The notes beneath the pieces were generated by a model that searched no databases, was not told the origin of the DNA, and was given only the letters and a program-made list of their open reading frames with translations. The translations under genes and the position numbers were made by a program. Source: a virus (taxonomy: Duplodnaviria; Caudoviricetes). Taken from it: a stretch of 64,000 nucleotides of DNA. Positions 35,956 through 63,009 of the stretch are shown here, in pieces (the stretch's first letter is position 1; every line of letters begins with the position of its first letter). The DNA lies in IMG/VR virus record IMGVR_UViG_2861736478_000001, positions 12,387 to 76,386 of that record; one strand, given 5' to 3'.

Positions 35956-36111
35956 ACGCCCGCCCAGAGTCTCGCGGCCCTGGGCGGGATTGCTCCGCCG
36001 GACCCTTCCCAGTCCGCGCGTCGAGCCGCCGGGTGCCTGGCCGCGTGCTGTTGAGGGGCAGCGCGCGACCAGGCATCCACCATCACCGCACACATCAAGG
36101 AGAGGGCCCGC

Positions 36112-36582
36112 GTGGCTGACTTCACCTTCAATATCGCCAAGGGCCGCGTGGTCGAGTTCTACCGGCAGATCAAAGCGAACACTCCCAGCGGATCGGCACT
36201 AGTCATGGTGGTCATCGCCGCCGCCGCCATCGAGGCAGACGGCCTGATGAACAATCGCACCACCCTCGCCGACGTGCTGTCGGCCTCCACTGAGGCGTCC
36301 AACGCCGGATACGAGCGAAAGTCGCTGCTGGCCGCGGACTTGGCTGAGGTCACAGTTGACAACGCCAATGACCGGGTTGACCTCGACATCCCCGACCAGA
36401 CGTACATCAACGTCCAGGCAGCCGGCGGCGCCTGGGGCAAGATCCTCATCTGCCACAGGCCGGGCTCGGTCGTCCCCGATTCCCAGATCATCCCGCTGAC
36501 TGCGCACGACTTCCCCATGAACCCGGACGGCGCCAACATCGTGGTGCAGACCGACGCCATCGGCTTCTACCGCGCCACCTGA
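36112..36582 (+). CDS. Putative virion structural protein
   Basis: AAGGAG RBS. FNIAKGRV.E...DRVDLD.PD motif seen in actinophage virion genes (recalled, not searched). Confidence 0.6.
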   Translation: MADFTFNIAKGRVVEFYRQIKANTPSGSALVMVVIAAAAIEADGLMNNRTTLADVLSASTEASNAGYERKSLLAADLAEVTVDNANDRVDLDIPDQTYINVQAAGGAWGKILICHRPGSVVPDSQIIPLTAHDFPMNPDGANIVVQTDAIGFYRAT

Positions 36583-36589
36583 CGGCGTC

Positions 36590-38560: not shown

Positions 38561-38573
38561 CTGGAGTCCACTC

Positions 38574-38834
38574 ATGTACGCGACGCCGAGCATTGGCCGC
38601 ATCGTCCACTACGTTTCCTACGGCACGCCGGGGGGTGAGTACACCTCCCAGTGCCGGGCCGCACAGATCACGGAGGTCGCGCCCGACGGGAACACCGTGG
38701 GCCTGGCCGTCATAAGCCCCACGGGCCTGTTCTTCCACTCCCTCGCGCAAGGCGGCTGCGAGCACCACGAGACGTACGGCGTGAACCCGCCCGCCCGCCG
38801 CGGCGGCACCTGGCACTGGCCTGAGCAGGTCTGA
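38574..38834 (+). CDS. Conserved small phage protein (PSIGRIVHY family)
   Basis: PSIGRIVHYV...RAA.ITEV...VGLAV..PTGLFF...GGTWHWPE. Confidence 0.75.
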   Translation: MYATPSIGRIVHYVSYGTPGGEYTSQCRAAQITEVAPDGNTVGLAVISPTGLFFHSLAQGGCEHHETYGVNPPARRGGTWHWPEQV

Positions 38835-38927
38835 CCCGCAGCCTGATCCCCTTTCCCATCTCGTAGCACGAGCTCTACCGGCTCGCCATTCCCGCAAGCG
38901 GTTCAGCTTGCAAGAAGGGAGGTGGCG

Positions 38928-40489
38928 GTGCCGCTTCCCGACCGTGATATGGAATGGCCCCCGCCCCACACACGGCAAGAGAACAAGCTCTACGCCCAGT
39001 GGGGGGCCTGGTACTCAGGCGACCCCGACCGGCTGTCACAGGTGTACGGCGCGGGCGTGACACCGGGCCTCGGCCTGGATCTGAAGGGCTGGGACCGGCC
39101 GCTCCAATACGCCGGCGGCGTCGTCGGTCGCGTGGCCCGCTGGTTCTGGGGCTCGCCGATTCCGGCTGGCCAGTCGCGCAGCACGAAGCTGCACGTGCCG
39201 ATCGCCGCCGACATCAGCGCGACCAGCGCCGACCTGCTGTTCTCCGAGCCGCCCACTCTCCGCGTCCCGGGCAAGAAGGGCCAGTCGCGCCTAGACCGGA
39301 TCCTCGCTGACGGCGGCGTCTACAGCATGCTGCTGGAGTCCGCCGAGATCGGCTCCGCGTACGGCGGCGTCTACCTGCGCGTCGGCTGGAACAGCGAGAT
39401 CGCCGACTACCCCATCCTCGACCTGGTCCCCGCCGATGCGGCGGTGCCGGAGTTCGCCAACAACAGGCTCCGCGCGGTGACCTTCTGGAAGGTCGTTCAT
39501 GAGGAGGAGAAGGCGGTCTGGCGGCACTTGGAACGCCACGAGACCGGCCGGATCTACCACGGGCTGTACCGCGGTGACCGTGAGCGGCTCGGCATGCAGG
39601 TGCCTCTGGAGGATCACCCCGAGACCGCCGGATTCGCGGAGATCGTAGACGCCGAGGGCGGCCTGGACACCGGCTACGACAAGGCTTGCTCACCTACTAC
39701 GTGCCGAACATCAAGCCTCACCGGCTGCTGCGCGGCACTTCGCTCGGCCGCAGCGACTACAGCGGCGTCGAGCCGCTCATGGACGCGCTGGACGAGACCT
39801 ACACGTCCTGGATGCGGGACCTGCGGCTCGGAAAGGGCCGGATCATCGTGCCGGAGGTCTACCTGGCCAACACCGGTCGCGGCCGGGGGTCGACGTGGGA
39901 TCCGGACCGCGAGGTGTACTCCGGCCTGGGCATGATGCCGCCCGCCAATGGCGGGCCCAGCATGATCACGATCTCCCAGTTCGACATTCGCGTCGCCGAG
40001 CACAAGGAGACCGCTCGCACCCTGCTGGCGCAGATTCTGCGCGGCGCGGGCTACTCGGTGCAATCCTTCGGCGAGGCGGGCGACGGCCAGGCGGCCACAG
40101 CGACGGAGATCCACTCCCGTGAGCGCAAGTCGTTCGTCACCCGTGGCAAGAAGCTGAACTACTGGACGCCCGCCCTGGCGTGGCTCGCCGAGGCTCTCCT
40201 GTCGATCGACCTGGCCGTGTTCGGCACGAAGGTCGTCGCGGAGAAGGCCACCATCGAGTGGCCAGACGGGGTCATGCCCGATCCGGAGAGCCTGAGCCGG
40301 ACGCTGGACATGCTCAACCGGGCCCAGTCCGCCAGCCTCGACACCCGTGTCCGGATGCTCCACCCCGACTGGGACGACACCCAGGTCAAGGCCGAGGTGC
40401 GGCGCCTGCGCGACGAACTCGGGCTGAACCTGCCGGACCCGGCCGAGCTGGACGAGACGTACGTCCCGGGCGATGGCGACGACGACTAG
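38928..40489 (+). pseudogene. Portal protein (SPP1 gp6/A118-like) split by a 1-nt frameshift near 39684
   Basis: Frame 1 gives LHVPIAADISATSADLLFSE...GLDTGYDK. A second frame continues LLTYYVPN...GRSDY..MDALDETYTSWMRDLRLGK. Confidence 0.85.
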
Positions 40490-43001
40490 CGGACCCACGC
40501 CCGAGCAGGCCATCGAGCAGGCTTTGGAACAGGCCAAGCTCGTGGCCCGCATGTATGCGGAGGCCGAGCAGCTGCTCGCCGAGAAGATCGCCAAGCGCGC
40601 GACAGGCGGTGACGACGAGCAGGACGCTGGCCGGTGGCAAGAAGGCCGGTTCGCCGAGATCGGGCAGCTCCGCAAGGAAGCCCAGCAGATCATCAAGCGG
40701 CTCGAATCGGTAGCCAAGAAGGCTGCCGAGAAGGCAGTGCTCCAGTCCTGGGCCGATGGCATGGACTCCGCCGTGGTGGCCGCGTTGTCGCAGGTGCACG
40801 ACGACAAGGTCCGCAAGCGCCTGGACCAGGTGCTGCGGGATGCCCGGAAACTGGGGGCGAAGAAGCTGATCAACCCTGGCCAGGGCGTTAACGAGCTCGC
40901 CCGCCAGACCGTGGAGAAGCTGTCTGCCGTCCACCTGTCGGCGCTGCGCGTGGTCGACGACATCTACCGCAAGGTGGTCGCCGACACCGCTGGCCAGGTT
41001 CTGACCGGTGCCCGCACCCGGAAGGAGGCCGCTCGGGACGCGCTGAAGCGCCTGACCCCGGTGGCGCCGTTTCGGGACAAGTCGGGCCGCCAGTGGCGGA
41101 TGTCCACCTACGTGGAGATGGCCATGCGCACCGCCACGGCGCGCGCGGCCGTCGACGGCCATCTCGCGGTCATGCAGGACGCGGGCATCGACCTGGTCAT
41201 CGTCTCGACGACGCCGTGGAACTGCGAGAAGTGCGACCCCTGGGAGGGGAAGGTCCTCACGCAGTCCGGTGCGGCCGGAAAGATCTCGGTGGAGCACGCC
41301 CTCGAGGACGGTGTGCAGGTCGAGGTCGAGGTGGCCGCGACGGTGAGCGGGGCCCGCATCGCGGGGCTCTTCCACCCGCAGTGCCGTCACAGCTTGTCGG
41401 CGTACCTGCCGGGTGTGACGACGGTTCCGGCGAAGCCGACCGCTCCGCCGACCAAGCCCAAGCCGAAGCCGTCAGCGGGCAAGCCCAAGCCGACGCCGAA
41501 GAAGCCTGACAAGCCGCAGCTCGCCGCTCAAGAACAGCCGCGCCCGAACGCCGAAGCCACCGTGCGCCGAGAGGTCGACGAGCAGGCCCAGCGTGAGCAA
41601 CTGGTCGCGGAGGAGAGAGCACGCCGAGAGGTCGAGGAGCAGGAGAACGCCACTGGGGTTGAAGCCGGCGACTTCAGCAAACTGCGCCAGGTCGGGCAAC
41701 AGGGCGGATCGAACCCCGGCGGGATGTTCGAGGACGAGAACGGCAACCGCTGGTACGTCAAGACCCAGCAGTCCGAGACGCACGCCGCCAACGAAGTCGC
41801 CTCAGCCCGCCTGTACCGGGCGGCCGGGATCCGAACTCCCGACGTTCGCCGGGGGAGTGGCGCACCGGGCCTTCCGGACGGGCCGCAGACGGCAAGCCGA
41901 GTCGTGGAAGGCAAGCAGGTCACGGCCAAGGAGCTTCGCGGGCCTGCCCGTGAAGGATTCGGCGCCGACGCCTGGCTGGCCAACTGGGACACCGCGGGCC
42001 TGACGTTCGACAACATGCTCTTGTCGCCAGACGGGTCCGTGACCCGGATCGACACGGGCGGCTCGATGCTGTTCCGTGCTCAGGGCGGCCCGAAGGGCGA
42101 CAAGTTCGGCAACACCGTCCCCGAGTGGCGGACCCTGCGCCATCGCAAGCAGGCCCCGCAGGCCGAAAAGCTGTTCGGAGGGCTCACGCCGGTCGAGCAG
42201 GAAAAGGCGCTCGAACGAATTGAGCAGGTCACACCCGCTGAGATCCGCCGGATCATCTCCGAGTCGGGGCTCGACAAGGACGTAGCCGATCGGCTCATCG
42301 CCCGTCGTGCGGACCTCATGCGGCGCCTCAAGAAGGTACGGGAGCTTGCTCAACGGCAGCGCGCCTACGATAAGAAGCGCGCCACGGCAGCGACAGGTCG
42401 GGACGCACTGGACGCCGCGCCTACACGGCTGACCGTGTACTCCTACGGAAATCCGTCCAAGCTGGTTCCTCAACCTGCCGGGTGGACTGACGAGCAGGTC
42501 AGGCGCAGCACGTTTGCACTTGGCGGCTATCGGGGCTCCGACTACAAGGACATCAACAAGCGGCTGCGAGAGAACGATCCGGACCACAGCCAGATCAGAG
42601 ACATCGACAAGGTCATGCCCCTGTCGGAGCTCAAGAAGACTGTGCTGTCGTACCGGGGCATCCGCGACACCAAGGCATTCGGGTCTGCCTGGGATGACGT
42701 CGATGTCGCCGGGCTGGAGTGGATCGATCTGTCCTACGCCAGCACCACCGTGGATCTACGCATCGCTGAGCGATTCGCAGCGGGCGGGGATCCGCCCGTC
42801 ATCATGCGAATCGTCACCCCGCCGGGGGTTTCGGCGATCCGCTTGTCCGACCTCGCACCCCCCGACCGCGCTCCGGACCCTGGTACAAAGGAGGAAGCGG
42901 AGCTCATGCACCAGCGGGACATCAAGTACCGGGTGGTGACCGATCATGGATTCGACGAACGTGGAATCCGCCAACTGGACGTGGAGGTGTCCCCCCGATG
43001 A
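40473..43001 (+). CDS. MuF/minor capsid protein fused to HipA/PI-kinase-like and VIP2-type ADP-ribosyltransferase domains
   Basis: MuF: GRQWRMSTYVEMAMRT, CEKCDPWEG, GLFHPQCRH. Kinase-like: GSNPGG..WYVK..NE, DAWLANWD..DN..RIDTGG. ART: YRG, YASTT, EEAE. Confidence 0.85.
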   Translation: MATTTSGPTPEQAIEQALEQAKLVARMYAEAEQLLAEKIAKRATGGDDEQDAGRWQEGRFAEIGQLRKEAQQIIKRLESVAKKAAEKAVLQSWADGMDSAVVAALSQVHDDKVRKRLDQVLRDARKLGAKKLINPGQGVNELARQTVEKLSAVHLSALRVVDDIYRKVVADTAGQVLTGARTRKEAARDALKRLTPVAPFRDKSGRQWRMSTYVEMAMRTATARAAVDGHLAVMQDAGIDLVIVSTTPWNCEKCDPWEGKVLTQSGAAGKISVEHALEDGVQVEVEVAATVSGARIAGLFHPQCRHSLSAYLPGVTTVPAKPTAPPTKPKPKPSAGKPKPTPKKPDKPQLAAQEQPRPNAEATVRREVDEQAQREQLVAEERARREVEEQENATGVEAGDFSKLRQVGQQGGSNPGGMFEDENGNRWYVKTQQSETHAANEVASARLYRAAGIRTPDVRRGSGAPGLPDGPQTASRVVEGKQVTAKELRGPAREGFGADAWLANWDTAGLTFDNMLLSPDGSVTRIDTGGSMLFRAQGGPKGDKFGNTVPEWRTLRHRKQAPQAEKLFGGLTPVEQEKALERIEQVTPAEIRRIISESGLDKDVADRLIARRADLMRRLKKVRELAQRQRAYDKKRATAATGRDALDAAPTRLTVYSYGNPSKLVPQPAGWTDEQVRRSTFALGGYRGSDYKDINKRLRENDPDHSQIRDIDKVMPLSELKKTVLSYRGIRDTKAFGSAWDDVDVAGLEWIDLSYASTTVDLRIAERFAAGGDPPVIMRIVTPPGVSAIRLSDLAPPDRAPDPGTKEEAELMHQRDIKYRVVTDHGFDERGIRQLDVEVSPR

Positions 43002-47737: not shown

Positions 47738-48208
47738 ATGGCGCTTCGCAGCCTCCTCGCCAAGGACTGGACGCTGGAGGTCAACACGTCCAGCACCGCC
47801 GTACCGGCTTGGACCACGGTCAAGGGCCTGACCAAGCTCGAATTCACCCTCGACAGCGAGACCGAGGACGACAGCGACTTCGACAGCAACGGCTGGGCGT
47901 CCGAGGTCGTCACCCAGCGCAAGTGGGCGCTGGAGATCGAGGGGCGCCGCAAGCGCGACACCGGTTCGGCCTCCTTCGTGCCCGACCCCGGTCAGGAGTT
48001 CCTGCGCAAGGCCGGTCTCGTGGTCGGCATCAACGCCAACGTCGAAGTGCGTTGGTACCGCAAGGACGGCTCGCCGGACGCCTTCCAGGGCACTGCCGCC
48101 GTGCAGTACAAGGGGGCGGGCGGCGAGGTCACCGATCTGGAGCCGTTCGAGTGCGAGCTGACCGGCCAGGGCGAGCCCATCGAGATTGACAACCCGGCGG
48201 CGGCCTGA
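47738..48208 (+). CDS. Major tail tube protein
   Basis: LAKDW.LEV...DDSDFDS.GW...W.L..EG.R...DPGQE.LR. AAGGAG RBS. Confidence 0.85.
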   Translation: MALRSLLAKDWTLEVNTSSTAVPAWTTVKGLTKLEFTLDSETEDDSDFDSNGWASEVVTQRKWALEIEGRRKRDTGSASFVPDPGQEFLRKAGLVVGINANVEVRWYRKDGSPDAFQGTAAVQYKGAGGEVTDLEPFECELTGQGEPIEIDNPAAA

Positions 48209-48213
48209 CCCCG

Positions 48214-48606
48214 ATGGCGAAGTTCACAGACCTCAACGAGTTCTTCAACGACGGCCTGGCGCTCCCGGTTGGCGGCAAGGTCTACCACGTGCCGCCCGCC
48301 TCCGCCGAGGTCGGCCTGTTCTGCCAGAAGCTGATGGCGGCCGGGATCAGCGCCGCCAACGGTCAGGAGATCGACGCCGCCGACCTCGACGACGACGGAG
48401 AGAAGGACCTGTACAGGCGGGTCCTCGGCGACGTCTACGACGAGCTCATCGCCGATGGGGTGTCCTGGGCGAAGATCAAGCACTGCGGCGTCACGGCGTT
48501 CCTGTGGATCGCGACCGACGAGGACACCGCGGCCAAGCACTGGCGGGCCGACCCGGAAGCGGAGGCCCCGAAGGCGAAGGCTCGGGCGGGCCGGTCGACC
48601 CGCTGA
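48214..48606 (+). CDS. Tail assembly chaperone (G)
   Basis: L.LPVGGK.Y.VP..SA..GL...LY.RVLG..Y.EL..DGV.W, plus gene position. Confidence 0.8.
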   Translation: MAKFTDLNEFFNDGLALPVGGKVYHVPPASAEVGLFCQKLMAAGISAANGQEIDAADLDDDGEKDLYRRVLGDVYDELIADGVSWAKIKHCGVTAFLWIATDEDTAAKHWRADPEAEAPKAKARAGRSTR

Positions 48607-48863
48607 CGGGGCTGCGCGAATGGTATGACGCAGACGACGGCCTGGCCGTGGACGGCACCGCCGTCTCCTGGGCCGACCTGCTGCAACGCTGGGCTCTCGT
48701 CGAGGCCGACCTCCACTCCGAGTACGGCGTCGACGTCGACCAGCCCGGCCTTCTTCTCACCCGCACGTGGCGCTGGCTACGCGTGCGCATCCTGGGCCTG
48801 CTGTCCGCCGACACGCGGACCGCCCGCTCTCTCACCCCCGAAGACCGTCACCACCGGAGGTGA
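48597..48863 (+). CDS. Tail assembly chaperone downstream segment (T), -1 frame relative to G; start uncertain
   Basis: SWADLLQRW.LVEADLHSEYGVD...TWRWLRVRILGLLS.DTR. Confidence 0.65.
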   Translation, partial: DPLTGLREWYDADDGLAVDGTAVSWADLLQRWALVEADLHSEYGVDVDQPGLLLTRTWRWLRVRILGLLSADTRTARSLTPEDRHHRR

Positions 48864-48866: not shown

Positions 48867-50828
48867 GTGGCGTTGAACGTGGGCGAGCTGTACGCGACGC
48901 TCGAACTGAAGGACCGCCTGACCGGTCCGCTGGGAAAGGCCACAGCAGGGATCAAGGTCAAGGCGACCGGCATCCACGCGGCGATGGTCATGGTCGGGAT
49001 GGCCGCCGCGCGGATGGCCGCCGCGGTCGCATCCGGCGCGTCGAGGGCCGGAGCCGCCTTCGTCTCGTCAGGCGCGAAGATGGCGGCGGCTGGCGCGAAG
49101 AGCGCCGGGCTGCTGGCGGGCGTCGGCGTGGCAGGCGTCGCTGTTGGTGGCGTTCTCGCTGGCGTTTTCGCTGGCATCACTGCCGGGATCGCGAAGATCG
49201 GCATCCAGGCGGCGATGTCCGCGCCCGCGGTGAAGGCCGCCTTCGCGGACCTGAAGACGTCCGTGCAGGCCGATCTGGCGGACGCGGCGTCGGTGTTCCA
49301 GGGGCCGCTGATCGCCGCTGCTGGCCAGCTCAAGGGCATGTTCTCCAGCCAGATCGCGCCAGCGCTGGGGGACATGTTCAAGACGCTCGCGCCCTTGATC
49401 GGCCAGTTCACGACCGGGCTGGGCGCCTTTCTCAAGCCCATGCTGCCCGCGATCCAGGGCGTGGTGGCAGCGGTCACGCCGATGCTGTCGGCCCTGGCCG
49501 GGTCCATGGGGATCTTCGGGTCGCAACTCGCTGGCTTTCTTGCTCCCATCTCGCAAGCGTTTTCGCAATCGAGTGGACTGCTGGCCACGCTGGTCACCGG
49601 TGTTGGTGGTCTGCTTCAGTCACTAGCGCCTTTGCTTGCGGCTCTTGTGGGGCTCGCTGCCCAGGTCGCAGGCCCGCTCATGAGCGGGCTGGCCACCGTC
49701 GGCCAGACCCTGTCCGCGCAGCTTGGGCCGGTCCTCATCCAGCTCGGCCCGCTGATCGGACAGCTGATCACGCAGTTCGCGCAGATCGCGGCAGCCGTGA
49801 TCCCGCTGCTGCCGCCCTTTCTACAGCTGGCGGCCACGCTGGCGTCGGCGCTGATGCCGGTTCTGACCCAGATCGTCGGGGCGCTCGCCTCGGCTCTTCA
49901 GCCGATCCTCGTGGCGCTCCAGCCCGTGCTGGCTGCTCTGGCAGAGGTCTTCGGGGCCGTCATCACGGCCCTGCTGCCGATCTTGCCGCCGATCTCTCAG
50001 CTGATCACCGCGCTTCTCCCGGTCGTGGTCACGCTGGTCAAGGCGCTCACACCGATTCTGACCATGCTCGCCACGGTGTTCTCCAAGATCGTTGGAGCGA
50101 TCACGCCGTTCATCGCACCACTGGTCCAGATCACGACCGCACTCCTACCGCCGCTGATCTCGCTGGTCCAGGCGGTCGTCAAGCTCTTTCAGGGAGACTT
50201 CAAGGGCGCGCTGAAGGTCGTTCAAGATGCCTTCTCGAACGCGGGCAAAGTCATCAAGGACGCCTTCCTCAAGATCATCGACATGGGGAAGAACCTGCTG
50301 AGCGGCCTGTGGGAGGGCATCAGCACCAAGGTCCAGTGGTTCCTGAACAAGATCGGCCAGTTCTTCGGCAACCTCCTGCCCGACTGGGTCAAGGACATCC
50401 TCGGCATCCACTCCCCGAGCCGCGTGTTCGCCGCCATCGGCTCGTTCACGATGCTTGGTTTCGCAGACGGGGTCACCGCCGAGCGGCCTGCCGTCCTTCG
50501 CGCCGCAGACCAGGCGACAAGGGGATTCGGAGCTGCCTTCCGCGCCGGGCTCAAACGCGAGGCCAGCGGCTTGGGCGACGCCATCAACGGCGCGACCCCG
50601 GGCAAGGTGGGCATCATCCCGCCCGGAGTGAAATCAGCGCTCCGCGCGGGGGGCCGCCGGGCAGGGAAGATCCCCGCAGAGGCAACGCGCCGCGCGGTCT
50701 CCCCGAGCGGGAGCACCGTCCCCGGGAGCGTGACGGTGAACGTCACCAACATCCACCCCCAGGCGGAACCCACCAGCCGCACAGTGAACCGAGGCTTGCA
50801 GTACGCCGCCACGCTCGGCCTCACCTGA
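48867..50828 (+). CDS. Tape measure protein 1
   Basis: MALNVGELYATL, amphipathic Ala/Leu/Pro repeats, LGIHSPSRVF, C-terminal PQAEPTSRTVNRGLQYA. Confidence 0.9.
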   Translation: MALNVGELYATLELKDRLTGPLGKATAGIKVKATGIHAAMVMVGMAAARMAAAVASGASRAGAAFVSSGAKMAAAGAKSAGLLAGVGVAGVAVGGVLAGVFAGITAGIAKIGIQAAMSAPAVKAAFADLKTSVQADLADAASVFQGPLIAAAGQLKGMFSSQIAPALGDMFKTLAPLIGQFTTGLGAFLKPMLPAIQGVVAAVTPMLSALAGSMGIFGSQLAGFLAPISQAFSQSSGLLATLVTGVGGLLQSLAPLLAALVGLAAQVAGPLMSGLATVGQTLSAQLGPVLIQLGPLIGQLITQFAQIAAAVIPLLPPFLQLAATLASALMPVLTQIVGALASALQPILVALQPVLAALAEVFGAVITALLPILPPISQLITALLPVVVTLVKALTPILTMLATVFSKIVGAITPFIAPLVQITTALLPPLISLVQAVVKLFQGDFKGALKVVQDAFSNAGKVIKDAFLKIIDMGKNLLSGLWEGISTKVQWFLNKIGQFFGNLLPDWVKDILGIHSPSRVFAAIGSFTMLGFADGVTAERPAVLRAADQATRGFGAAFRAGLKREASGLGDAINGATPGKVGIIPPGVKSALRAGGRRAGKIPAEATRRAVSPSGSTVPGSVTVNVTNIHPQAEPTSRTVNRGLQYAATLGLT

Positions 50829-50861
50829 TCCCACCACGCCAGCCCGGACGGGAGGTGCGAG

Positions 50862-52889
50862 ATGGCGATCAACGTCGGCGAGCTGTTCATCCTGCTCGAC
50901 CTGCGCGACACCATGTCCGCCAAGCTCCAGCGGGCGTTCGTCCGAAGCCGCACGTCGGCCACGGACTTCGGGACCCGCCTCAGCAGAGTGACCGGCGGCG
51001 CGGTCCAGTCGCTCACCTCCACCGCCGTGGCGGCCACCGCCACGGCGGTCAAGTTCGCTGTCCTGGCCGCCGCCGCGGCTTCGACCGCCGGCCACCTCCA
51101 GGCCCTCGGCGTCGCTCTGGCCCCGGCGGGCGGCATCATCGCCGCGCTCCCGGGGGTGGCCGCCCTTGGCGCCGCAGGGCTGGCCACGCTCGCACTGGCC
51201 TTCCGGGGTGTCGGTGACGCCGCGACCGCAGCTCTGGGCGACGACGCGGAGGCGTTCCAGGAGTCGCTCGCGGGCCTGTCGCGTGAAGCTCAGGGCGCAG
51301 CGCGGGAACTGCGGCAGCTCAAGCCCGTCGTCGACGGCCTGCGCCTTTCGGTGCAAGACGCCTTCTTCGCCCCGCTCGCGGGACAAATCGCAGCCGTTGC
51401 TGACGCACTTTCCGCAAGCGTTTCCGCTGGCATGTCAGCCGTTGCGGCGCAGTTCGGCCTCGCCGGTCTGGCGGTCGCGGACTTCCTTCGCACCGCGGAG
51501 ACCGCGTCTGCTGTGGAGGCCGTGTTCGGGTCGCTGGCCGATGCCATCGCCGCGCTCACCCCCGCGATCCAGCCCGTCGCCGCAGGTCTGCGAGACCTTG
51601 TCGTAGTCGGCGCGTCGTTCTCAGCCAGCCTCGCCCCCAGCATCGCGAGCGCCGCGGCCCGGCTCGGCACCTTCCTGAGCACGGCCGCCGCCTCCGGCCG
51701 TGCCCTGGAGTGGATGACCGGCGCAGTCGAGGTGTTCAAACAGCTCGGCGCTGCCGCCCGTGACGTAGGCGGCATCGTGACCGGCGTCCTCGGGGCGCTG
51801 CGCAGCGCCGGAACCAGCGCGCTCGGCGTGATCGGGCAGGTTCTCGACGGGGTCAACCGGTGGGTCAACTCGGCACAGGGCCAGCGGGTCCTCGTCGAAG
51901 TCTTCGCAGCGCTCGGCAGGGTCGGTGAGGCGTTCGTCCCGGTCGTACTCGCGATAGCCAGCGGCCTGGCCGAGCTGGCGCCCGTCGTCGCCGACCTGGC
52001 CGTACAGCTCGGGCCGGTGCTGACGGAAGCCATCTCCGCCGTCGCGCCCGCGCTCGCCGACCTCGGCCCAGGAGTGATCGCCGTCGTCGACGCGATCGGC
52101 CTAGCCGTGAGGGAGCTCGGCCCCGCACTTTCACCCATCGCAATCACGCTGGCGGAACTGCTTGCGGCTGTTGCCCCGCTGATCCCTGTGGTCGCCGACC
52201 TGGCGTCGATCATCGTGCGCAGCCTGGCGGCCGGCGTGCAGGACGTTCTGCCGGACCTGGCCCGGATGGCGTACGCCTTCACCGACGTGCTCTACGCGGC
52301 CCTGCCGCTGCTGCCGCCGCTGCTCCAGCTCGCCACCGACTTGCTGCCGGTCATCGCTGACCTTGTGACCGGCGTGGCCCGGCTGCTGTCGGGCGACTTC
52401 GCCGGAGCGCTCACCGCGGCGGGGTACGCGGCCATCGGCTTCGTGAACAGCATGGGCAACATCGGCTACCTGCTGCTGACCGGCCTGTGGGACGGCATCG
52501 TCTCGGCCGCCGCGTGGTTCAGGGACGCGATCTACAGCTTCTTCTCCAGCATCCTGCCTGACTGGGTGCGCGACGCTCTCGGTATCCGTTCCCCGAGCCG
52601 GGTGTTCGCCGAGATCGGCCGCAACACCATGCTCGGCATGGCGGATGGCATGACGAGCTCCACCAGGCAGGTCTTGGCTACGGCGGGGGACATCGCGGCC
52701 CGATTGGAGAAGTCGTTCGCCCCCAACCTAGCCGCGTCCATCGGGTCGACCGGGGTGGTCGCGACGGGCGCGAGCCGTGCGGCAGGGCCGGTCAACATCA
52801 CCGTCCACACCTACAACCCGCAAGCTGAACCAACTTCGTCCACGATCAACCGCGGACTGGCGTACGCGGGCATGCTGGGGGTGCTCTGA
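50862..52889 (+). CDS. Tape measure protein 2
   Basis: GGAGG RBS. MAINVGELFILL, same repeat type, LGIRSPSRVF, C-terminal PQAEPTSSTINRGLAYA. Confidence 0.9.
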   Translation: MAINVGELFILLDLRDTMSAKLQRAFVRSRTSATDFGTRLSRVTGGAVQSLTSTAVAATATAVKFAVLAAAAASTAGHLQALGVALAPAGGIIAALPGVAALGAAGLATLALAFRGVGDAATAALGDDAEAFQESLAGLSREAQGAARELRQLKPVVDGLRLSVQDAFFAPLAGQIAAVADALSASVSAGMSAVAAQFGLAGLAVADFLRTAETASAVEAVFGSLADAIAALTPAIQPVAAGLRDLVVVGASFSASLAPSIASAAARLGTFLSTAAASGRALEWMTGAVEVFKQLGAAARDVGGIVTGVLGALRSAGTSALGVIGQVLDGVNRWVNSAQGQRVLVEVFAALGRVGEAFVPVVLAIASGLAELAPVVADLAVQLGPVLTEAISAVAPALADLGPGVIAVVDAIGLAVRELGPALSPIAITLAELLAAVAPLIPVVADLASIIVRSLAAGVQDVLPDLARMAYAFTDVLYAALPLLPPLLQLATDLLPVIADLVTGVARLLSGDFAGALTAAGYAAIGFVNSMGNIGYLLLTGLWDGIVSAAAWFRDAIYSFFSSILPDWVRDALGIRSPSRVFAEIGRNTMLGMADGMTSSTRQVLATAGDIAARLEKSFAPNLAASIGSTGVVATGASRAAGPVNITVHTYNPQAEPTSSTINRGLAYAGMLGVL

Positions 52890-52891: not shown

Positions 52892-53761
52892 TTGCCGACT
52901 TACACACTCGACGGCGTGGCACTGGACCACCCGGCCGGCTGCTGGAGGCTGAAGAGCGGCACCCGCCGTCGTTCGTTTCCCGCAGCCCGGTCGGTGTCGG
53001 TCAAGATGCCCGGCCGGTCGGGGGAACTCCCCATAGTGGGCCTGGACCTGGAGACCACCTCGGTCGCGCTCGTCTTCGGGCTCACTGGCCGGACCCCGTC
53101 CGGCACGGACGGCGGGTTCGAACAACTGGAGTCGAATCTTGAAGCACTCGCCGCCTTGATTGGTGTCCGCCACCGGCTGATGACGCTCTCCTACACCGCG
53201 GGCTCGATCGTCCGCGTCGCGGAGGTTGCGCTCGATTCGGTGTCGGAGCCTGAGGTCGACGTCGGCTCGGCTCGTGGGCGGCTCACGGCGATCTTCAAGA
53301 TCCCCGGCGTCTTCTGGCGTGACCCGATCACGTCCACTTGGGCGGGGAGCGCGAACGCAGCTGAGCAGCCTGTCACTACCCTCGCCGGGTCCACCGGCCC
53401 GGTGGCAGACGCGCTCCTGCGCATCACCGGCCCGGCCGTCAACCCCGCGATCACCGACGTGGCCACGGGAGACACCATCACCAGGCCCTCCGGCCTGACC
53501 GCCGGACAGCGACTCCTCATCGACTGCGGGCAGATGAAAGCACGCCTGGTCACCACGGACACCTGGGACATGAGCGCGGGCTCGGACGTGACCGGCCAGA
53601 TCCAGGCCACAGGCCCAGGCTCGGCGTTCCACTGGCTCCACCTCACTCCTGCGGTGGGCGTCGGCGACCCCTTCTCGCGCGTCGTCCTGGTCACCAGCTC
53701 AGCGACGTCCACGACCGGCGCGTCCGGGTTGGAGGTTCGCGCCCGCCGCGCCTACCTGTGA
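52892..53761 (+). CDS. Distal tail protein (Dit)
   Basis: Follows the TMPs. YTLDGV.LD...PGRSG...FWRD...GSTGPVADA..RITGP..NP. Confidence 0.75.
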   Translation: MPTYTLDGVALDHPAGCWRLKSGTRRRSFPAARSVSVKMPGRSGELPIVGLDLETTSVALVFGLTGRTPSGTDGGFEQLESNLEALAALIGVRHRLMTLSYTAGSIVRVAEVALDSVSEPEVDVGSARGRLTAIFKIPGVFWRDPITSTWAGSANAAEQPVTTLAGSTGPVADALLRITGPAVNPAITDVATGDTITRPSGLTAGQRLLIDCGQMKARLVTTDTWDMSAGSDVTGQIQATGPGSAFHWLHLTPAVGVGDPFSRVVLVTSSATSTTGASGLEVRARRAYL

Positions 53762-53764: not shown

Positions 53765-54652
53765 CTACTTCCAGGGGGCTGGCCAGTCGAGCCACTGTCC
53801 GAGGCCGGCATACGTCCCGATGGCTGTGGCGATGAAAGCGAGAGTCCAACCAACTATGGGCCAGAAACGCCCCCTCCTGGGTTCTGCGGGGGTGTTCACG
53901 CTATTCGAAATGCCGCCAGCGTCGTGTCCTGCGTAGTTGAAGATCGTATTCGGGCTGTTTTCGATGCGGATTTCTGGCACCGCAGTGGCGAGCGCCTGGT
54001 TGGTGACATCTGCGGACGGTGTCTCCTCACCTTCGGGCATGTTCGCGCGCATCTCGCTGACGAGCTCAGCCAGGGTGCTTCGGATACGGCTCACAACACC
54101 CTTGATCGTGACGGGCTGGAACTTAATGTAGATCTCGCCAACCCGCTGCATCTGGGGAATGTTCCCAGCCTTCCAGCCCGCTTCCGTGACAAGTCGCGCT
54201 ATGTCATCAAACGGTGGCCGCTTCACGGAGAGATCCTTACCCTGAGCGGCGAGGTCTTCTAGCTCGGATACCGATTCTGTAAGGTGGACCTCCTCCGTAA
54301 CGTACTCGCGAAGCTGTTCGGGAAACCACGATGGCGTTACCGGCTGGGGCATGGGGTTGTACCCGCCTCGATTAACGTGGACCACCCAGAGAGTGCCGAT
54401 GATCTTTCTGTAGACAGGAACGTCCTCCGTGGTGGTGTAGCCGTTCAGCTCGCGCTTCGCCCAGTCACGGAGCGGCCCGGAACGGGCATGCCCGCCCAAG
54501 GTCACACACTTTAGAAGAATGTTCGAAAGTGGCGTGCTGGGATCAATGATGTCCCGCTCGATCTGCGCGAGCAGAGAGTCGTCTCGGGATCGTCCCGCCG
54601 AGGGCTTCGTCACCGGCCTATTGTCTCGCGAATACCGGGGTATCTGACGCAC
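53765..54652 (-). CDS. AbiTii-domain protein with C-terminal TM helix (defence moron)
   Basis: D...PLSNILLKC..LG.....LRDWAKRELNGY...VPVYR, ending in a FWPIVGWTLAFIATAIG TM helix. Lower GC. The true start may be 54613. Confidence 0.75.
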   Translation of the reverse strand: MRQIPRYSRDNRPVTKPSAGRSRDDSLLAQIERDIIDPSTPLSNILLKCVTLGGHARSGPLRDWAKRELNGYTTTEDVPVYRKIIGTLWVVHVNRGGYNPMPQPVTPSWFPEQLREYVTEEVHLTESVSELEDLAAQGKDLSVKRPPFDDIARLVTEAGWKAGNIPQMQRVGEIYIKFQPVTIKGVVSRIRSTLAELVSEMRANMPEGEETPSADVTNQALATAVPEIRIENSPNTIFNYAGHDAGGISNSVNTPAEPRRGRFWPIVGWTLAFIATAIGTYAGLGQWLDWPAPWK

Positions 54653-54684: not shown

Positions 54685-57423
54685 GTGCAGATGCTCCTCC
54701 GTCTCGCCATCTACGCCCCCAACGGAACCCGGAAGGGTGTCCTGCCGACCACGATCGGCACAGAGGTCGGGTGGCCGTTCAACGACGTGCCCGCCCTCAA
54801 GCTGACCCACAGCCAGGCCGGGCCAGGAAGCGACCTGCTCTCCGACCCTTGCGAGATCGCCGTCGAGGTCTCGGGAGACGGAACTAGCTGGGCTGAGCCT
54901 GCCGATTCTCGGTTCCTGCTGATTCGGCGGCATCTCGATCTCACCGACAAGGCGGCCGTCGAACAGCTCGACATGCCCGGCTACGCGTGGATGCTGCGCA
55001 AGCTAATCCTCTATCCCGGCAGTCAGCCGTTGGTCGACGGCAAGCGGGCGTTTCTGAGTGCGACGCCGGGCGCGATCCTCGCCACGTTCCTGACCGAAGG
55101 GCACGCGCGCGGCACGCTGACCGGCTTGACGTGGAACTTCAGCTCCACCCACGACTCTGCGGGACAGCCGTGGGCCAAGGTCTTGACGATCTACTACGAG
55201 CCGGGGCTGGACGCGCTCACCACGCTTATCAACCTCGCCGAGCAGGGCGTGCTCGACTTCTCCATGCAGGGCCGTCAGCTGCGCGCCTACAACGCCGACA
55301 CCCAGCTGGCGCGCGACCTCGCCACCGGGCCCGCCCCGATAGATCTGCGCCACGGCCGTGACATCACCCACGCGCCCGACGTCGGCACCCTGGAGGACGC
55401 CGCGTCCGCGGTCCTGGTCGTGGGCGATAACCAGTTCCAGCAGACCTACACCAACCCCTCTGCCGTAGCGCCATGGGGGCGGTGGGAGCAGTACGTCGGC
55501 CAGGGCGGCGTGTCCGATCCCGGTACGGCGGCGCTGCTCGCCGACGCGGCACTCAAGCGCGCCGAACGGGAACGGGTGCAACGGACCCGGCAGATCAGTC
55601 TGGCGGCGGCACGCTGGTTCCCGATCCTGGACTACCGGCCCGGTGACCGGGTTCTCGCGCCCGGCGCAGGAGGTCTGCCAGAGCCGCTGCGGGTCCGGCA
55701 GGTCACCCTGGTCCGGGACCAGACAGGGGTGCTCTCCGGCAACGTCGTCCTCAACGACCGGCTGCTCGAACAGGACATCCGCCTCGCCCGACGCACAGCG
55801 GGCATCGTCGGCGGTTCGACGGCGTCCGGCGGCTCCGGGGCGCGCCCTGCGCCCGCATCACCCCGGCCGCGTTCCCCCACCGCGCCTGCCGGGCTGATTG
55901 TGGACGCGCAGGCGTACATCGACTCGGCCGGCGTCCCCCAAGGCCAGATCACTGCCACCTGGGGCGCGGTAGTCACCGACGTCAACGGCACAGCCGTCGA
56001 GATCGACGGCTACGAGCTGTTCATGCGCGTCAACCAGGCGGACGCACCGTGGTTCCTCGTCGCGCTGACCCAGGCCGACGACAGGAACGCGACCTACAGC
56101 CCGCTCGTGATCGGCGAGCAGTACGCGTTCAAGGTCCGGGCCACCAACCAGGGTGCGCGGGGCGGATTCTCGGCACAGCAGGTGGTCACGGTCCCCGACG
56201 ACATCGATGCGCCACCCGTGCCGACGCCTCCTTCGCTCTCGACCCGTCTCGGCGTCATCCACGTCGGATGGGACGGGCACGGCGTCGGTGGCGTTCTCAT
56301 GCCGTCCGACTTCGCCCATCTCCTGGTGTGGATGCAGGACCCGCTCTCGCCCGGCTGGTCCGAGGTCGGATACCTGGAGCAGGCGGGCGGGATTGTCGTA
56401 CCCGGCCAGCCGTACGGCCAGGACCGCGAGTTCCGGCTGACCGCGGTGGACCGCTCGGGCAACGAGTCCGCGCCGTCCAGCTCGGCCACGATCGCAGCCG
56501 TCCAGCTGGTGTCCGGGGACGCCGCGGCGAGTTCGATCACGACTGGGCACCTGGTCGCCAACGCCGTCACGGCGGCGAAGATCGACGTCGGTGCGATCCA
56601 GGCGGCCCACATCGGAGCGAACCAGGTGACGGCGGCCAAGCTCGAATCGGTGCTGACGCTGTCCACCCGCATCGTCGCGGGCAGCGCGGCCGGGGCTCGG
56701 GTCGAGCTCAACAGCACGGGCCTGGCCGCCTACGACTCGGGCGGCGTCCAGACGGTCTCCATCTCCTCTGCGACCGGCAGCGTGTCGCTCGTGGGCCAGC
56801 TCGCCTCGGGCGTGACGGGGGCGCGCGTCGTCATCAATCCGTCCGGGGCGATGGTCCCGGAGCTGCGCTTTTACCCCGGCGCTGGAGCCAACTACTCGCG
56901 CATCTTCAGCGACGCCTCCCTGTTCCCTGGTGAAGCGACCCTGATCAGCTTGTCGGGTACCAACAGCGGCAATACCGCCGAAACCAGGGTTATGCACGCT
57001 GCGGGCGCCTACCACGTGAGGGTCCGAAACCCGGTGACCACGCTCGACAACGGCGGCTTCCTCGCGCTGGAGGAGTCGCAATCGCGGGTCGGCTTCAACC
57101 GGCATGCCACCACCCAACTTCAGCAGCTCACCTTCCTCCCGACCTCTACCCGGCATACCGGGGCCTGGTCCTACAGCGGCGGCGACGCCGGACTCGTGAT
57201 GAGCACCGTCACAATCCCCGCCAACCAGGCCGGGGCCACCTTCACCTACGGGCCGACCATGGCCAGCTCCCCGTATGTGGTGGCCACCATCGACGTCGGC
57301 GCAACCGGCAGTCCGCGCGTCGGCGCGTGCGTGTCGGCCAGGACCACGACGAGCGTCTTCGTGAGCCCCACCACGACGCAGGTGGTCGCCATCACCGCCC
57401 AGCTCTGGGGCTGGCGCATGTAA
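54685..57423 (+). CDS. Tail tip/hub-central fibre protein 1
   Basis: Hub-like N-terminus (WPFNDVP, AWMLRKL, PWGRWE), FN3-like domains, AITAAKI repeats, C-terminal beta domain. Confidence 0.8.
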   Translation: MQMLLRLAIYAPNGTRKGVLPTTIGTEVGWPFNDVPALKLTHSQAGPGSDLLSDPCEIAVEVSGDGTSWAEPADSRFLLIRRHLDLTDKAAVEQLDMPGYAWMLRKLILYPGSQPLVDGKRAFLSATPGAILATFLTEGHARGTLTGLTWNFSSTHDSAGQPWAKVLTIYYEPGLDALTTLINLAEQGVLDFSMQGRQLRAYNADTQLARDLATGPAPIDLRHGRDITHAPDVGTLEDAASAVLVVGDNQFQQTYTNPSAVAPWGRWEQYVGQGGVSDPGTAALLADAALKRAERERVQRTRQISLAAARWFPILDYRPGDRVLAPGAGGLPEPLRVRQVTLVRDQTGVLSGNVVLNDRLLEQDIRLARRTAGIVGGSTASGGSGARPAPASPRPRSPTAPAGLIVDAQAYIDSAGVPQGQITATWGAVVTDVNGTAVEIDGYELFMRVNQADAPWFLVALTQADDRNATYSPLVIGEQYAFKVRATNQGARGGFSAQQVVTVPDDIDAPPVPTPPSLSTRLGVIHVGWDGHGVGGVLMPSDFAHLLVWMQDPLSPGWSEVGYLEQAGGIVVPGQPYGQDREFRLTAVDRSGNESAPSSSATIAAVQLVSGDAAASSITTGHLVANAVTAAKIDVGAIQAAHIGANQVTAAKLESVLTLSTRIVAGSAAGARVELNSTGLAAYDSGGVQTVSISSATGSVSLVGQLASGVTGARVVINPSGAMVPELRFYPGAGANYSRIFSDASLFPGEATLISLSGTNSGNTAETRVMHAAGAYHVRVRNPVTTLDNGGFLALEESQSRVGFNRHATTQLQQLTFLPTSTRHTGAWSYSGGDAGLVMSTVTIPANQAGATFTYGPTMASSPYVVATIDVGATGSPRVGACVSARTTTSVFVSPTTTQVVAITAQLWGWRM

Positions 57424-57594: not shown

Positions 57595-60369
57595 ATGCAA
57601 GTGATCATCCCTGGGGAGCGGCCCCGGTTCGGAGTCCGGCTTGTCGCCCATGCTCCCAACGGGCCCCGGCTCGGACTCCTTGGAGCGCCCCTGAGCTGGG
57701 ACGCCGGGCTTCCGCTGAACGATGTGCCAAGCCTGGAGCTGACCTACACCGCCCACGCTCAAGGCGCGGCCTGGCTGCGAGAGCCGTGCGAAGTTGCGCT
57801 GGAGTACAGCGTGGACGGCGGCGCGTGGAGCGAGGCCGCCAACGGCAGGTTCCTGAGGATCAAAAGGTCAGGAGATGCGACCGACCAGACCGGCGCACAG
57901 CGATTCTCGCTGCCCGGATGGGCGTGGATGCTGCGCAAGCTCGTCCTCTACCCGTCACTCGACATGGTCGACGGCAAGCGCCAGTTCAACGCCGTCCGCG
58001 TCGGCCGCATCCTCACCACGCTGATCGCCGAGGGGTCCGGCCGCGGAACCCTTCCCGGCCTGGTCGTGGACTTCACAGCCACGCACGACTCTGCCGGCCA
58101 GCCGTGGTCGGCAGAGCTGACGATCGGCCTGGAGCCCGGAACCGACCTCCTCCAGCTCCTCATCAACCTGTCTGAGCAGGGCGTATGCGACTGGCAGATG
58201 ACCGGTCGCGTTCTGCAGGTCTACAACGAGGGCACCGCGTTGGGTCGCCAACTGGCCGCCGGACCGGCGCCGGTCGAGCTGATCCTGGGCCGCGACATCG
58301 ACCAGGCCCCTGACGACGCGACGCTCGAAGACGCCGCATCGGCGATCCTCGTCGTTGGCGAGGAAGGGCTACGAGTCGAGGTCACCAACCCGGCCGCTGT
58401 CGCGCCGTGGGGCCGGTGGGAGGCATTCCAGCAGCAGGGCGGCGTCAAGGACGAGGGCACCGCCCGGCTGCTTGCTGGTCAGGCGTTGGAGCGCGCGAGC
58501 CGGGAGCGGGTGCAGTTCACCCGCCAGATCAAGCCGCAGCAGGCACGATTCCTGCCGCTGGTCGACTATCGGCCGGGCGACACCATCCGGGCGCCGGGGG
58601 AGGAGGGCAAGCCCGAGCCGCTGCGGATCCGGCAGATCACGCTGTCGCGCGGTGACGACGGCGTCGTGGGCGGCAACCTCACGCTGAACGACAGGTTCTT
58701 GGAGAGGGAGATCAAGCTCGCCCGCCAGGCCGCCGGCATTCTCAACGGCGGCGTCTCCGGCGGGGGCAACGGCGGGGATCCCGGAGGGGACAACGAGAAC
58801 CGCGTCCCAGCAGCCCCGACCGGTCTCCTCGTGAACCCGGCCGCCTACCTGGATGACGAGGGATACGCCCACGGGCAGATCACCGTCTCGTGGGTCGGCG
58901 TGACCAGCGACGTCAACGGCACGCCGCTCACGGTCGACGGCTACGAGCTGGTCGGGCAGACCCCGCCGGGCACGGGCGCGATGCGCGTCCTGGCCACGAC
59001 CACCGGCACAAGCGTCAGCTACTCGCCGCTGGAGCCCAAGACTCGCTGGCAGTTCGGGGTCCGTGCCACCAACCAGGGCACGCGAGGCGTGGTCGCGGGC
59101 ACGGCGGTGATCACCATCCCGGACGACGAGACGCCGCCGCCGGGCCCGTCCGCGCCGGTCGTCGACAGCCGAATCGGGATCTTCCGGATCACGTGGGACG
59201 GGTTCACCAGCGCGGGCACTGGCATGCCCACGGACTTCGCCCGCGTTTTGATCATGATGCGGGATCCGCTGGACCTCAGCGATGAGGGCCAGCAGGTCGA
59301 GTGGCTCGAACGCGCGGGCACCGCCGTGGTGCCCGGCCAGCCGTACAGCGTTGACCGGGAATTCTGGCTGGTCGCGATCGACAGGTCCGGCAATCTCAGC
59401 GGCGCATCAGCTCACGTCATGTCGCAAGCGAAACCGCTTGTGAATTCGGACATGATCGGCGAGATCATCAACGGAGCCGAGCACATCATCACCGGCTCCA
59501 TCCCGGCCAACGCGAAGATAGTCGCTGGATCAATTACTGGCGGCCTCATCCAGGCGCTCGCCATCGACGCGGGGAAGATCGCCGCGAACGCCATCAGCGC
59601 CGACAAGATCGTGGCGGGTGCGATCGACGCGGCGCATATCAAAGCCAACGCGGTCACTGCGGACAAGATCGCGGCAGGGTCCATCACCGCTGCGAAGATC
59701 GACGCCGACGCGCTCAACGGCAAGGTCATTACCGGCCCCGTCATCCGGAGCTCGGCCACCGGGCGCAGGTTCGTTCTCGACAGCAGCACGCTCGACCTGC
59801 GGTTCTACCCGTCCGGATCGTCGAACTACTCCCGCGTCTACGCGGAAGACTCGGGCGGCGAAGCCGCAGTGGCTATCACCACGAACACGTCGTTCTCGCA
59901 GCGGGCCGAGCTGCGAGTGAACTCGAGCCTGATCAGGCTCGGCATGATCAGTAGCGGTGGCGGACAGTCCGGCGGCGGCTTGGACATCGCCTCCAGCTAC
60001 GCCCGATACGGCTACAGCGCCGGTAGCTCCTCCACCGAGGCGTCGATCCTGTTCGACGGCGCTGGCAAATGGACCATGAAGGGCAGGGTCTGGGAGTTCA
60101 CCACCTCCAGCGCCTACGAAACGATCTGCGCCGGATCAGGCGTCGTTTCCTCCGGCTACGTCGGCGTCACGATCACGTACGGACCGTATATGGCCGGCAA
60201 CATGGGGCCCGTCGCGGTGGTGCGCGATGGCGCGACCACTCCGAACTTTTATTGGTGCTTGGACGCCTCCAGCCCTTCCGGGTTCTCGATCGGCTGGTCC
60301 TCTGGCGGCGGAGTCTATTCGGGCAAAGCCTTCTACTTCTGGTCCTTCCGCCACCCGGGCTCAGCGTGA
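57595..60369 (+). CDS. Tail tip/hub-central fibre protein 2 (full-length paralog of protein 1)
   Basis: LPLNDVP, AWMLRKL, PWGRWE, FN3-like domains, AISADKI repeats, LRFYP..SNYSR. Confidence 0.8.
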   Translation: MQVIIPGERPRFGVRLVAHAPNGPRLGLLGAPLSWDAGLPLNDVPSLELTYTAHAQGAAWLREPCEVALEYSVDGGAWSEAANGRFLRIKRSGDATDQTGAQRFSLPGWAWMLRKLVLYPSLDMVDGKRQFNAVRVGRILTTLIAEGSGRGTLPGLVVDFTATHDSAGQPWSAELTIGLEPGTDLLQLLINLSEQGVCDWQMTGRVLQVYNEGTALGRQLAAGPAPVELILGRDIDQAPDDATLEDAASAILVVGEEGLRVEVTNPAAVAPWGRWEAFQQQGGVKDEGTARLLAGQALERASRERVQFTRQIKPQQARFLPLVDYRPGDTIRAPGEEGKPEPLRIRQITLSRGDDGVVGGNLTLNDRFLEREIKLARQAAGILNGGVSGGGNGGDPGGDNENRVPAAPTGLLVNPAAYLDDEGYAHGQITVSWVGVTSDVNGTPLTVDGYELVGQTPPGTGAMRVLATTTGTSVSYSPLEPKTRWQFGVRATNQGTRGVVAGTAVITIPDDETPPPGPSAPVVDSRIGIFRITWDGFTSAGTGMPTDFARVLIMMRDPLDLSDEGQQVEWLERAGTAVVPGQPYSVDREFWLVAIDRSGNLSGASAHVMSQAKPLVNSDMIGEIINGAEHIITGSIPANAKIVAGSITGGLIQALAIDAGKIAANAISADKIVAGAIDAAHIKANAVTADKIAAGSITAAKIDADALNGKVITGPVIRSSATGRRFVLDSSTLDLRFYPSGSSNYSRVYAEDSGGEAAVAITTNTSFSQRAELRVNSSLIRLGMISSGGGQSGGGLDIASSYARYGYSAGSSSTEASILFDGAGKWTMKGRVWEFTTSSAYETICAGSGVVSSGYVGVTITYGPYMAGNMGPVAVVRDGATTPNFYWCLDASSPSGFSIGWSSGGGVYSGKAFYFWSFRHPGSA

Positions 60370-61604: not shown

Positions 61605-61775
61605 ATGTCTGAACCGACCGAGGAACAGCTCGTGGCCGCGGGCGTGGACCTGAGGCCATGGGGCCCGACAGAGCCTGACGAAGAGCAGGTGCTGCGCGGC
61701 CTGGGCTACGTCCTCAACCCGCTGACCGGCACCTACGAAGGCGACCCCCACGACGAGGACGGAGCACCCGAATGA
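61605..61775 (+). CDS. 56-aa acidic protein coupled to endolysin
   Basis: AGGAGG RBS. MSEPTEEQL...EPDEEQVLRGLGY. ATGA overlap with the endolysin. Confidence 0.6.
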   Translation: MSEPTEEQLVAAGVDLRPWGPTEPDEEQVLRGLGYVLNPLTGTYEGDPHDEDGAPE

Positions 61776-62742: not shown

Positions 62743-63009
62743 ATGTTTCATCAGTGGCTTCTCAGCCTGTGGCGCACCGTCGTGCCGTCGCTCGTCGGAG
62801 GCATCCTCGGGTGGCTCGCCCTTCGCGGCATCGCCATCGAGGGCGTTACTGCCGAGCAGATCAGCGCTGGCGCGGTCGTGCTCGGCACCGGCCTGTACTA
62901 CGGCGTCTTTCGGGCTCTGGAGCAGCGCTGGCCCGCTCTTGGCATCCTGCTTGGATCTACCAAGACCCCCACCTACGCGCAGCGTCAGCCGTACGACTAC
63001 TCGCGCTGA
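62743..63009 (+). CDS. Holin
   Basis: WRTVVP..VG..LGWL...YY...RALEQRWP.LG.LLG..K.PTY, two TM helices, after the endolysin. Confidence 0.8.
   Translation: MFHQWLLSLWRTVVPSLVGGILGWLALRGIAIEGVTAEQISAGAVVLGTGLYYGVFRALEQRWPALGILLGSTKTPTYAQRQPYDYSR

Follow-up and report, generated by a model that had tools for sequence, protein, structure and literature searches.

We analysed a 64,000-nucleotide stretch of viral DNA (the window; positions 12,387 to 76,386 of the IMG/VR virus record IMGVR_UViG_2861736478_000001), which carries a temperate siphophage-type prophage of Nonomuraea whose phage-like stretch is about 40 kb long. The tail operon of this prophage holds two complete tape measure protein (TMP) genes in tandem, TMP1 and TMP2. 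We found that the pair is real, old and selectively maintained, and that such pairs of complete tape-measure genes occur in a family of temperate siphophage-type prophages of the Streptosporangiaceae. The tape measure is the textbook single-gene ruler of tail length, and models of length determination, tip nucleation and DNA-channel formation assume identical copies of one protein. The retention of both genes suggests that the tails of these prophages may be built around two different TMPs.

Two complete tape measure genes

TMP1 (48867..50828, 653 aa) starts with GTG and TMP2 (50862..52889, 675 aa) with ATG; both lie on the + strand. Each is an open frame with zero internal stops, and each is preceded by a Shine-Dalgarno sequence 6 nt 5' of the start codon, GGAGG at 48856-48860 for TMP1 and GGGAGG at 50850-50855 for TMP2. 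The ribosome-binding site (RBS) of TMP2 falls within the 33-nt spacer between the two genes (50829..50861, + strand), in which we sought promoter-like and terminator-like sites and found none. In the window the two genes share one reading frame and are set apart by one TGA and 11 sense codons (50826-50864). An earlier note on this DNA had described open reading frames (ORFs) of 653 and 675 aa with MA(L/I)NVGEL starts and like C-terminal ends, both frames intact and TMP2 with an RBS of its own; our ORF and sequence check found exactly this. The two proteins are paralogs, as the alignment proposed in that note revealed (31% identity over 576 aa, E 2e-46, BLASTP). TMP1 matched the PHROG tape-measure family phrog_58 (E 1.7e-35) and TMP2 the tape-measure family phrog_305 (E 1.7e-50). 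Searches of Pfam and NCBIfam with both proteins returned no model above threshold and no hydrolase or other enzymatic domain.

The likeness of the two proteins lies at their ends. They have in common an N-terminal motif, MA[LI]NVGEL[YF]..L.L[KR]D, a C-terminal block, LLxGLWxGI...LPDWVxDxLGIxSPSRVFAxIGxxTMLG, and a C-terminal tail motif, ..NPQAEPTS.T[VI]NRGL.YA..LG... The block, located by its HMM match, covers aa 465-552 of TMP1 (50259..50522, +; LLSGLW..LPDWVKDILGIHSPSRVF..) and aa 525-614 of TMP2 (52434..52703, +), and the two copies are 48% identical. The tail of TMP1 (50724..50825, +; VNVTNIHPQAEPTSRTVNRGLQYAATLGLT) is of a type, T1, that is kept across the T1 genes described below, and the tail of TMP2 (52785..52886, +; VNITVHTYNPQAEPTSSTINRGLAYAGMLGVL) is a C-terminal module of the T2 type. 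We compared these ends with those of the single TMPs of relatives that have the same head and tail genes. T1 genes, T2 genes and the single TMPs all carry N-terminal MALNVGELFATL.LRD and C-terminal YPQAEPTS.TVNRGLQYA. Because the sole TMPs of homologous prophages bear these same two ends, TMP1 and TMP2 each qualify on sequence as a complete tape measure by the standard of their own family, and they are two complete genes because each has both end motifs. The earlier note had held that this is not one split TMP, and we agree, since each protein has the N-terminal motif as well as the C-terminal block and tail; a tape measure gene split into two ORFs is thereby ruled out.

Between the ends the proteins have diverged, as had been claimed. 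TMP1 has an uncharged hydrophobic Leu/Pro/Ala repeat core (49467..50186, +; about aa 201-440) of about 240 residues with 0-2 charged residues per 40 aa. Its longest uncharged run is 169 aa, versus 50 aa in TMP2. TMP2 has a charged core (51249..52154, +; aa 130-431) that is absent from TMP1. This core matches residues 308-605 of the gp16 tape measure in PDB 8zdo (E 2.7e-13), and it also matches the TMPs of Streptomyces and Gordonia phages. The TMP composition is marked by grand average of hydropathy (GRAVY) values of 0.77-0.79 and by long uncharged runs. AlphaFold2 modelled the C-terminal 190 aa of TMP2 as helical, at a confidence (mean pLDDT 54) too low for a fold search.

Two known systems can be set beside the pair. 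The repeats of TMP1 resemble those of gp57 of Staphylococcus phage 80alpha, an example of the single TMP of Gram-positive siphophages, and those of FtbJ from the Listeria monocin, an F-type tailocin; FtbJ (PDB 9j1k, an entry with three chains) aligns to the uncharged Leu/Pro repeats of TMP1 with E 4e-9. FtbJ differs in being a single gene in its tailocin and in lacking the family-specific end motifs of TMP1 and TMP2. The 80alpha protein gp57 (PDB 6v8i, 9mu2) is like TMP1 and TMP2 in its hydrophobic repeats and in its place after the G/GT chaperone and before the distal tail protein (Dit). The block regions of both proteins align to the C-terminal part of gp57, which has GIHSPSREF (GI.SPSR.F), the two E values being 2e-8 and 7e-9, and a stretch of TMP2 that includes the block aligns to gp57 971-1126. 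However, 80alpha and every cultured phage matched have one TMP gene, whereas the prophage described here has two complete ones.

Among 50,697 cultured-phage records, TMP1 matched 540 and TMP2 314. None of these matches exceeded 60% identity or extended over 80% of the query, and all of them lay in single TMP genes. Two matching places were found only in the two records of Rothia phage Spartoi, which is annotated with a single TMP gene. In the literature that we searched, a limited library, no siphophage was described as having two tape measures; its mentions of 'two tape measure' concerned chaperones or pairwise comparisons.

Distribution, selection and history of the pair

We searched TMP2 against 61 related genomes and the C-terminal module against 401 genomes of the family, and scanned a degenerate DNA motif for the C-terminal tail over 185,579 species genomes. 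The scan gave 33 loci, almost all in Streptosporangiaceae and a few in Pseudonocardiaceae. None of our conclusions depends on the unpublished genome G042. Tandem pairs were present in 12 species-level genomes of three genera (Nonomuraea, Spongiactinospora and Streptosporangium), with T1 upstream in 12 of 12. These are the genome of the window, Nonomuraea sp. NPDC050556, N. longicatena, Spongiactinospora sp. TRM90649, genome G022, Nonomuraea sp. NPDC050404, N. bangladeshensis, Nonomuraea sp. B19D2, N. fuscirosea, N. cavernae, Nonomuraea sp. M3C6 and Streptosporangium sp. CA-135522. The earlier note had proposed looking for the same pair in related prophages, and had named a duplication unique to one assembly as an outcome that would count against it. 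The pair was recovered in 11 further genomes, and its presence in 12 independent assemblies rules out an assembly artefact or a unique duplication. Ten of the 12 pairs have both ORFs intact; in the other two, from N. cavernae and Nonomuraea sp. M3C6, the start of T1 falls outside the fetched stretch. The spacers between T1 and T2 are 33-137 nt long, and GGAGG precedes the T2 start in all 12 pairs. In G022 a two-block T1 is followed by T2, giving three blocks in the operon.

The shared reading frame in the window raises the question of whether the two proteins act in series. Placed end to end, or joined by read-through of the TGA, they would act as one ruler, about 1330 aa in length, and the tail would be roughly doubled; at the textbook value of about 0.15 nm per residue, a protein of about 650-700 aa extrapolates to a tail of about 100 nm. 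T1 and T2 are indeed in frame, with a single stop and 11-15 sense codons between them, in the pairs of the window and its two close relatives, in that of Spongiactinospora (stop TAA, 15 codons) and in that of Nonomuraea sp. B19D2 (stop TGA, 13 codons), and other prophages in these genomes have single TMPs of 867-1581 aa. Yet the frame relation is lost in 4 of the 12 pairs and extra stops occur in 3 more, TMP2 has its own RBS in every pair, and the two ends that would meet, N-terminal motif in TMP2 and C-terminal tail in TMP1, are as conserved as in sole TMPs, which is unexpected for ends buried in the middle of a tail. We therefore regard a serial arrangement as very unlikely. A conserved read-through fusion of T1 and T2 in particular is ruled out, because the frame relation is not kept across the pairs. 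In the window itself, where one TGA separates genes that are in frame, read-through could in principle join them.

Prophages of the same family with one TMP are found in Nonomuraea, Planomonospora, Thermocatellispora, Sphaerimonospora and Streptosporangium saharense. Their TMPs are 744-972 aa long and have the same end motifs, and their major capsid protein (MCP), connector, tube, chaperone, Dit and tip proteins are homologous to those of the window (50-93% identity). Across double- and single-TMP prophages alike, the MCP, connector, tube, G, Dit and both tip proteins are 50-99% identical. Single TMPs of the T2 kind, 744-972 aa with one block, occur in many Nonomuraea and in Planomonospora, Thermocatellispora and Sphaerimonospora. 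A single TMP of the T1 kind, 858 aa with two C-terminal blocks, occurs in S. saharense and in IMG/VR UViG_2863332268, and related two-block genes of 959 aa are present in two further genomes of the family. In the loci that we read, no T1 with a single block stood without a T2. In the single-TMP prophages the structural ORFs are intact over the stretches read. If these prophages are functional, a TMP of either the T1 or the T2 type can apparently serve as the sole ruler. Two copies of the SPSRVF block in one polypeptide were seen at loci L039 (7001-9577), L020 (6279-9065), L044 (8100-10979), L045 (8461-11340) and L046 (8796-11993).

We computed dN/dS by the Nei-Gojobori method among the copies of the window, NPDC050556 and N. 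longicatena. The values were 0.15-0.24 for TMP1, within a range of 0.15-0.27 for T1, and 0.10-0.11 for TMP2, and 0.14-0.18 for the tube protein and 0.10-0.12 for Dit as comparison genes. Both TMP1 and TMP2 are thus under purifying selection, like the tube and Dit genes, and the relaxed selection that the earlier note had looked to as a sign against the pair was seen in neither copy. These values bear on another account of the second TMP, a redundant duplicate that has no distinct function and is heading to loss. Degraded copies in decaying prophages fit such a course: Nonomuraea sp. H19 retains a remnant with the last 40 codons of T1 beside an internally deleted T2, and N. basaltis contig 32 and Nonomuraea sp. 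NPDC049709 have only TMP fragments (loci L063, L055 and L074). The portal gene of the window copy, described below, is also broken. Against this, the pair has been kept at 31% identity across three genera, with both ORFs intact in 10 of the 12 pairs and dN/dS of 0.10-0.27. We disfavour a redundant duplicate and consider it highly improbable.

The trees described here are built from repetitive, compositionally biased proteins and quick searches, and the deep order of events in them is not secure. In the full-length tree all T1 genes form one clade (support 99) and the T2 genes divide into two groups. T2a, to which TMP2 belongs, comprises the window clade, Spongiactinospora and G022 and adjoins the single Planomonospora TMP; T2b consists of genes of 732-734 aa and is sister to T1. 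In the tree of the C-terminal module, the T2a and T2b modules cluster together (support 92) and are separate from both the T1 modules and the main single-TMP clade. Because T2a and T2b are split by their full-length sequences and united by their modules, the constant of the pair appears to be two distinct C-terminal modules in a fixed order, with the protein bodies exchanged. The block of window-type T1 genes shares more identity with T2-type blocks (42-48%) than with the blocks of other T1 genes (30-36%), a sign that a module may have been exchanged long ago. At only 48% identity, the TMP1 and TMP2 blocks give no support to a recent gene conversion between them.

Another reading is that only one of the two proteins measures. 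One paralog would set the length, and the other would be a TMP-derived protein carried in the tail or ejected through it, for example as a membrane channel or pilot protein, or would act in assembly only. T1 genes are extremely hydrophobic (uncharged runs of 169-333 aa), as expected of a membrane-inserting segment, and T2a is the type nearest the single TMPs. This account has to contend with a full set of end motifs under purifying selection in both proteins. It must also accommodate the T1-type sole TMP of S. saharense and of the IMG/VR provirus, which would make T1 a competent ruler. We consider one ruler with one accessory protein unlikely.

Tail operon and prophage setting

The gene order around the pair, major tail protein (MTP), G/GT, TMP1, TMP2 and Dit, is canonical. 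The major tail (tube) protein is present in a single copy (47738..48208, +; phrog_3884, E 1.9e-48) and is homologous in all single- and double-TMP relatives. It is followed by the tail assembly chaperone G (48214..48606, +; phrog_3860, E 5.9e-32; Pfam DUF7426, E 2.2e-47). An open -1 frame overlapping G (48186..48863, +), presumed to be the T extension of the G/GT frameshift product, ends 3 nt before TMP1. Dit is likewise a single copy (52892..53761, +; phrog_33, E 6.6e-6) and is 59-90% identical in relatives. Downstream lie two tail-tip paralogs, A (54685..57423, +; 912 aa) and B (57595..60369, +; 924 aa), and neither co-varies with the TMP pair.

The last result bears on a possible link of the TMP pair to the two tip paralogs. 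It was not borne out, since the tip pair also occurs with single TMPs: at L023-L026, L042, L047 and L048, and in a split form at L027-L029 and L049. At least nine single-TMP relatives carry both tip paralogs, and matched sets of a TMP pair and a tip pair are therefore ruled out as a rule. S. saharense has one TMP, and one tip paralog was found in the stretch read. The tip paralogs, of about 915 aa, are kept as a pair in many relatives; at L027-L029 and L049 a gene of its own encodes the N-terminal domain of about 375 aa that the paralogs have in common, and the C-terminal portions are spread over several ORFs.

The makeup of the operon also bears on whether TMP1 and TMP2 serve separate tails. 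Homo-oligomers of each would then nucleate tails of their own, producing two virion subpopulations with different tail cores and different ways of crossing the host envelope, and perhaps with slightly different tail lengths. Such a mixture could serve as a hedge against exclusion systems, of the host or of a prophage, directed at the tape measure. Either type is the sole TMP in some relatives, the C-terminal modules of T1 and T2 are of distinct types in all pairs, and the lengths are unmatched in several pairs (differences of 69, 96 and -168 aa), all of which would suit alternative tails. But the tube gene, Dit and the chaperone are each present only once, and there is no second tip set to match, the tip paralogs being found with single TMPs too. 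The operon also has no sign of a switch, TMP1 and TMP2 being apparently co-transcribed and having similar RBSs. On balance two kinds of tail seem to us improbable.

The rest of the prophage includes a tyrosine recombinase (at 27511), TerL (at 34669), a portal (38922-40489, in two frames), MCP (at 44159), with a minor head protein before it and connectors between MCP and the tube gene, and an endolysin (at 61772). Measured against the intact 521-aa portal of Nonomuraea sp. NPDC050556, the portal of the window lacks 1 bp within a run of G near 39683, and this deletion splits it into two frames, 38922-39935 and 39686-40489. The deletion may mean that the window copy is defective, or it may reflect a sequencing error.

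Several further observations were made along the prophage. Between TerL and the portal lies a variable insert (35956-38866) with an ORF of 656 aa (36590-38560) and no clear family match; NPDC050556 has a different insert of 5.3 kb at the same place. The minor head protein is 842 aa long, and its C-terminal half (41435-43001) is absent from the NPDC050556 relative. In PHROG this half weakly matches ADP-ribosyltransferase exoenzymes (E 7e-4), and it is probably an ejected effector domain fused to a minor capsid protein. An antisense gene of the AbiTii family (53765-54652, - strand; Pfam PF18864, E 1.8e-29) stands between Dit and the first tip protein, and a prophage of Planomonospora parontospora (L043, 3778-4623) has a 40%-identical gene at the same Dit-tip position on the opposite strand. 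Synteny with Nonomuraea sp. NPDC050556, at 78-91% identity, takes in the whole window (window 1-63000 compared with G002:C1:1423035-1488479), even the left 20 kb, which do not resemble phage DNA; the similarity ends near window position 62965.

A proposed pair of parallel rulers and its meaning for the family

The explanation that we favour, tentatively, is a maintained pair in which both proteins span the tail in parallel, preferably as a mixed oligomer within one lumen. The TMP of 80alpha is trimeric. Its C-terminal 20 residues are helical and sit docked in the Tal tip (PMC7048315), and at the neck its N-terminal 37 residues join the tail completion protein in a sheet (bioRxiv 10.1101/2024.12.10.627806). 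TMP1 and TMP2 would be transcribed with the tail operon and each translated from its own RBS. By analogy with 80alpha, each would meet the tail completion protein of the neck with its N-terminus and dock in the tail tip with its C-terminus, so that both most likely span the whole tube side by side. Such a parallel, full-span arrangement is the most economical one, given that the two docking ends are under constraint in TMP1 and TMP2 alike. A shared lumen is favoured because there is one tube, one Dit and one chaperone, with no switch and with similar translation signals for the two genes.

Within the window lineage, the two proteins may divide the labour, TMP1 contributing long uncharged repeats that are probably membrane-inserting and TMP2 a charged core domain. 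Planomonospora, in a prophage with an MCP of 92-93% identity, combines a charged core and an uncharged run of 280 aa in its single TMP (about 972 aa). We infer the presence of both proteins in virions, their parallel arrangement, their co-assembly and this division of labour from sequence.

Several observations weigh against this reading. In the T1 + T2b pairs both proteins are hydrophobic and have no charged core. The division-of-labour pattern is absent there, and complementarity is for that reason not the general explanation for two genes. The partners differ in length by 22-168 aa and do not co-vary significantly (r = 0.66-0.73, p > 0.15, n = 5 lineages), and these unmatched lengths lend no support to a strict matching of lengths within one lumen. 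The C-terminal modules of T1 and T2 are of distinct types in all pairs, which would also fit two docking modes or two kinds of tail. Finally, the portal of the window copy is frameshifted, so this prophage may make no particles, and the portal is intact in its relatives NPDC050556 and N. longicatena JCM 11136.

With these points in mind, we put forward with some reserve, as a possibility to be taken seriously, that a lineage of temperate actinobacterial siphophages builds each of its tails on two different full-length TMPs, whether these join into a hetero-oligomeric ruler or coexist as two rulers whose tip-docking modules differ. The second TMP may widen or protect the route of DNA entry.

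A two-component tape measure, if this is what the pair encodes, would be the first in a siphophage. The practical consequence is small, namely that annotation pipelines should not presume one TMP per siphophage. For the biology of tails, the prophage family is a natural system in which to ask whether a ruler can be hetero-oligomeric, how the docking sites at the tip and neck would then be shared, and whether the membrane-penetrating and length-setting roles of the tape measure are separable, with natural single-gene relatives of both types as built-in controls.

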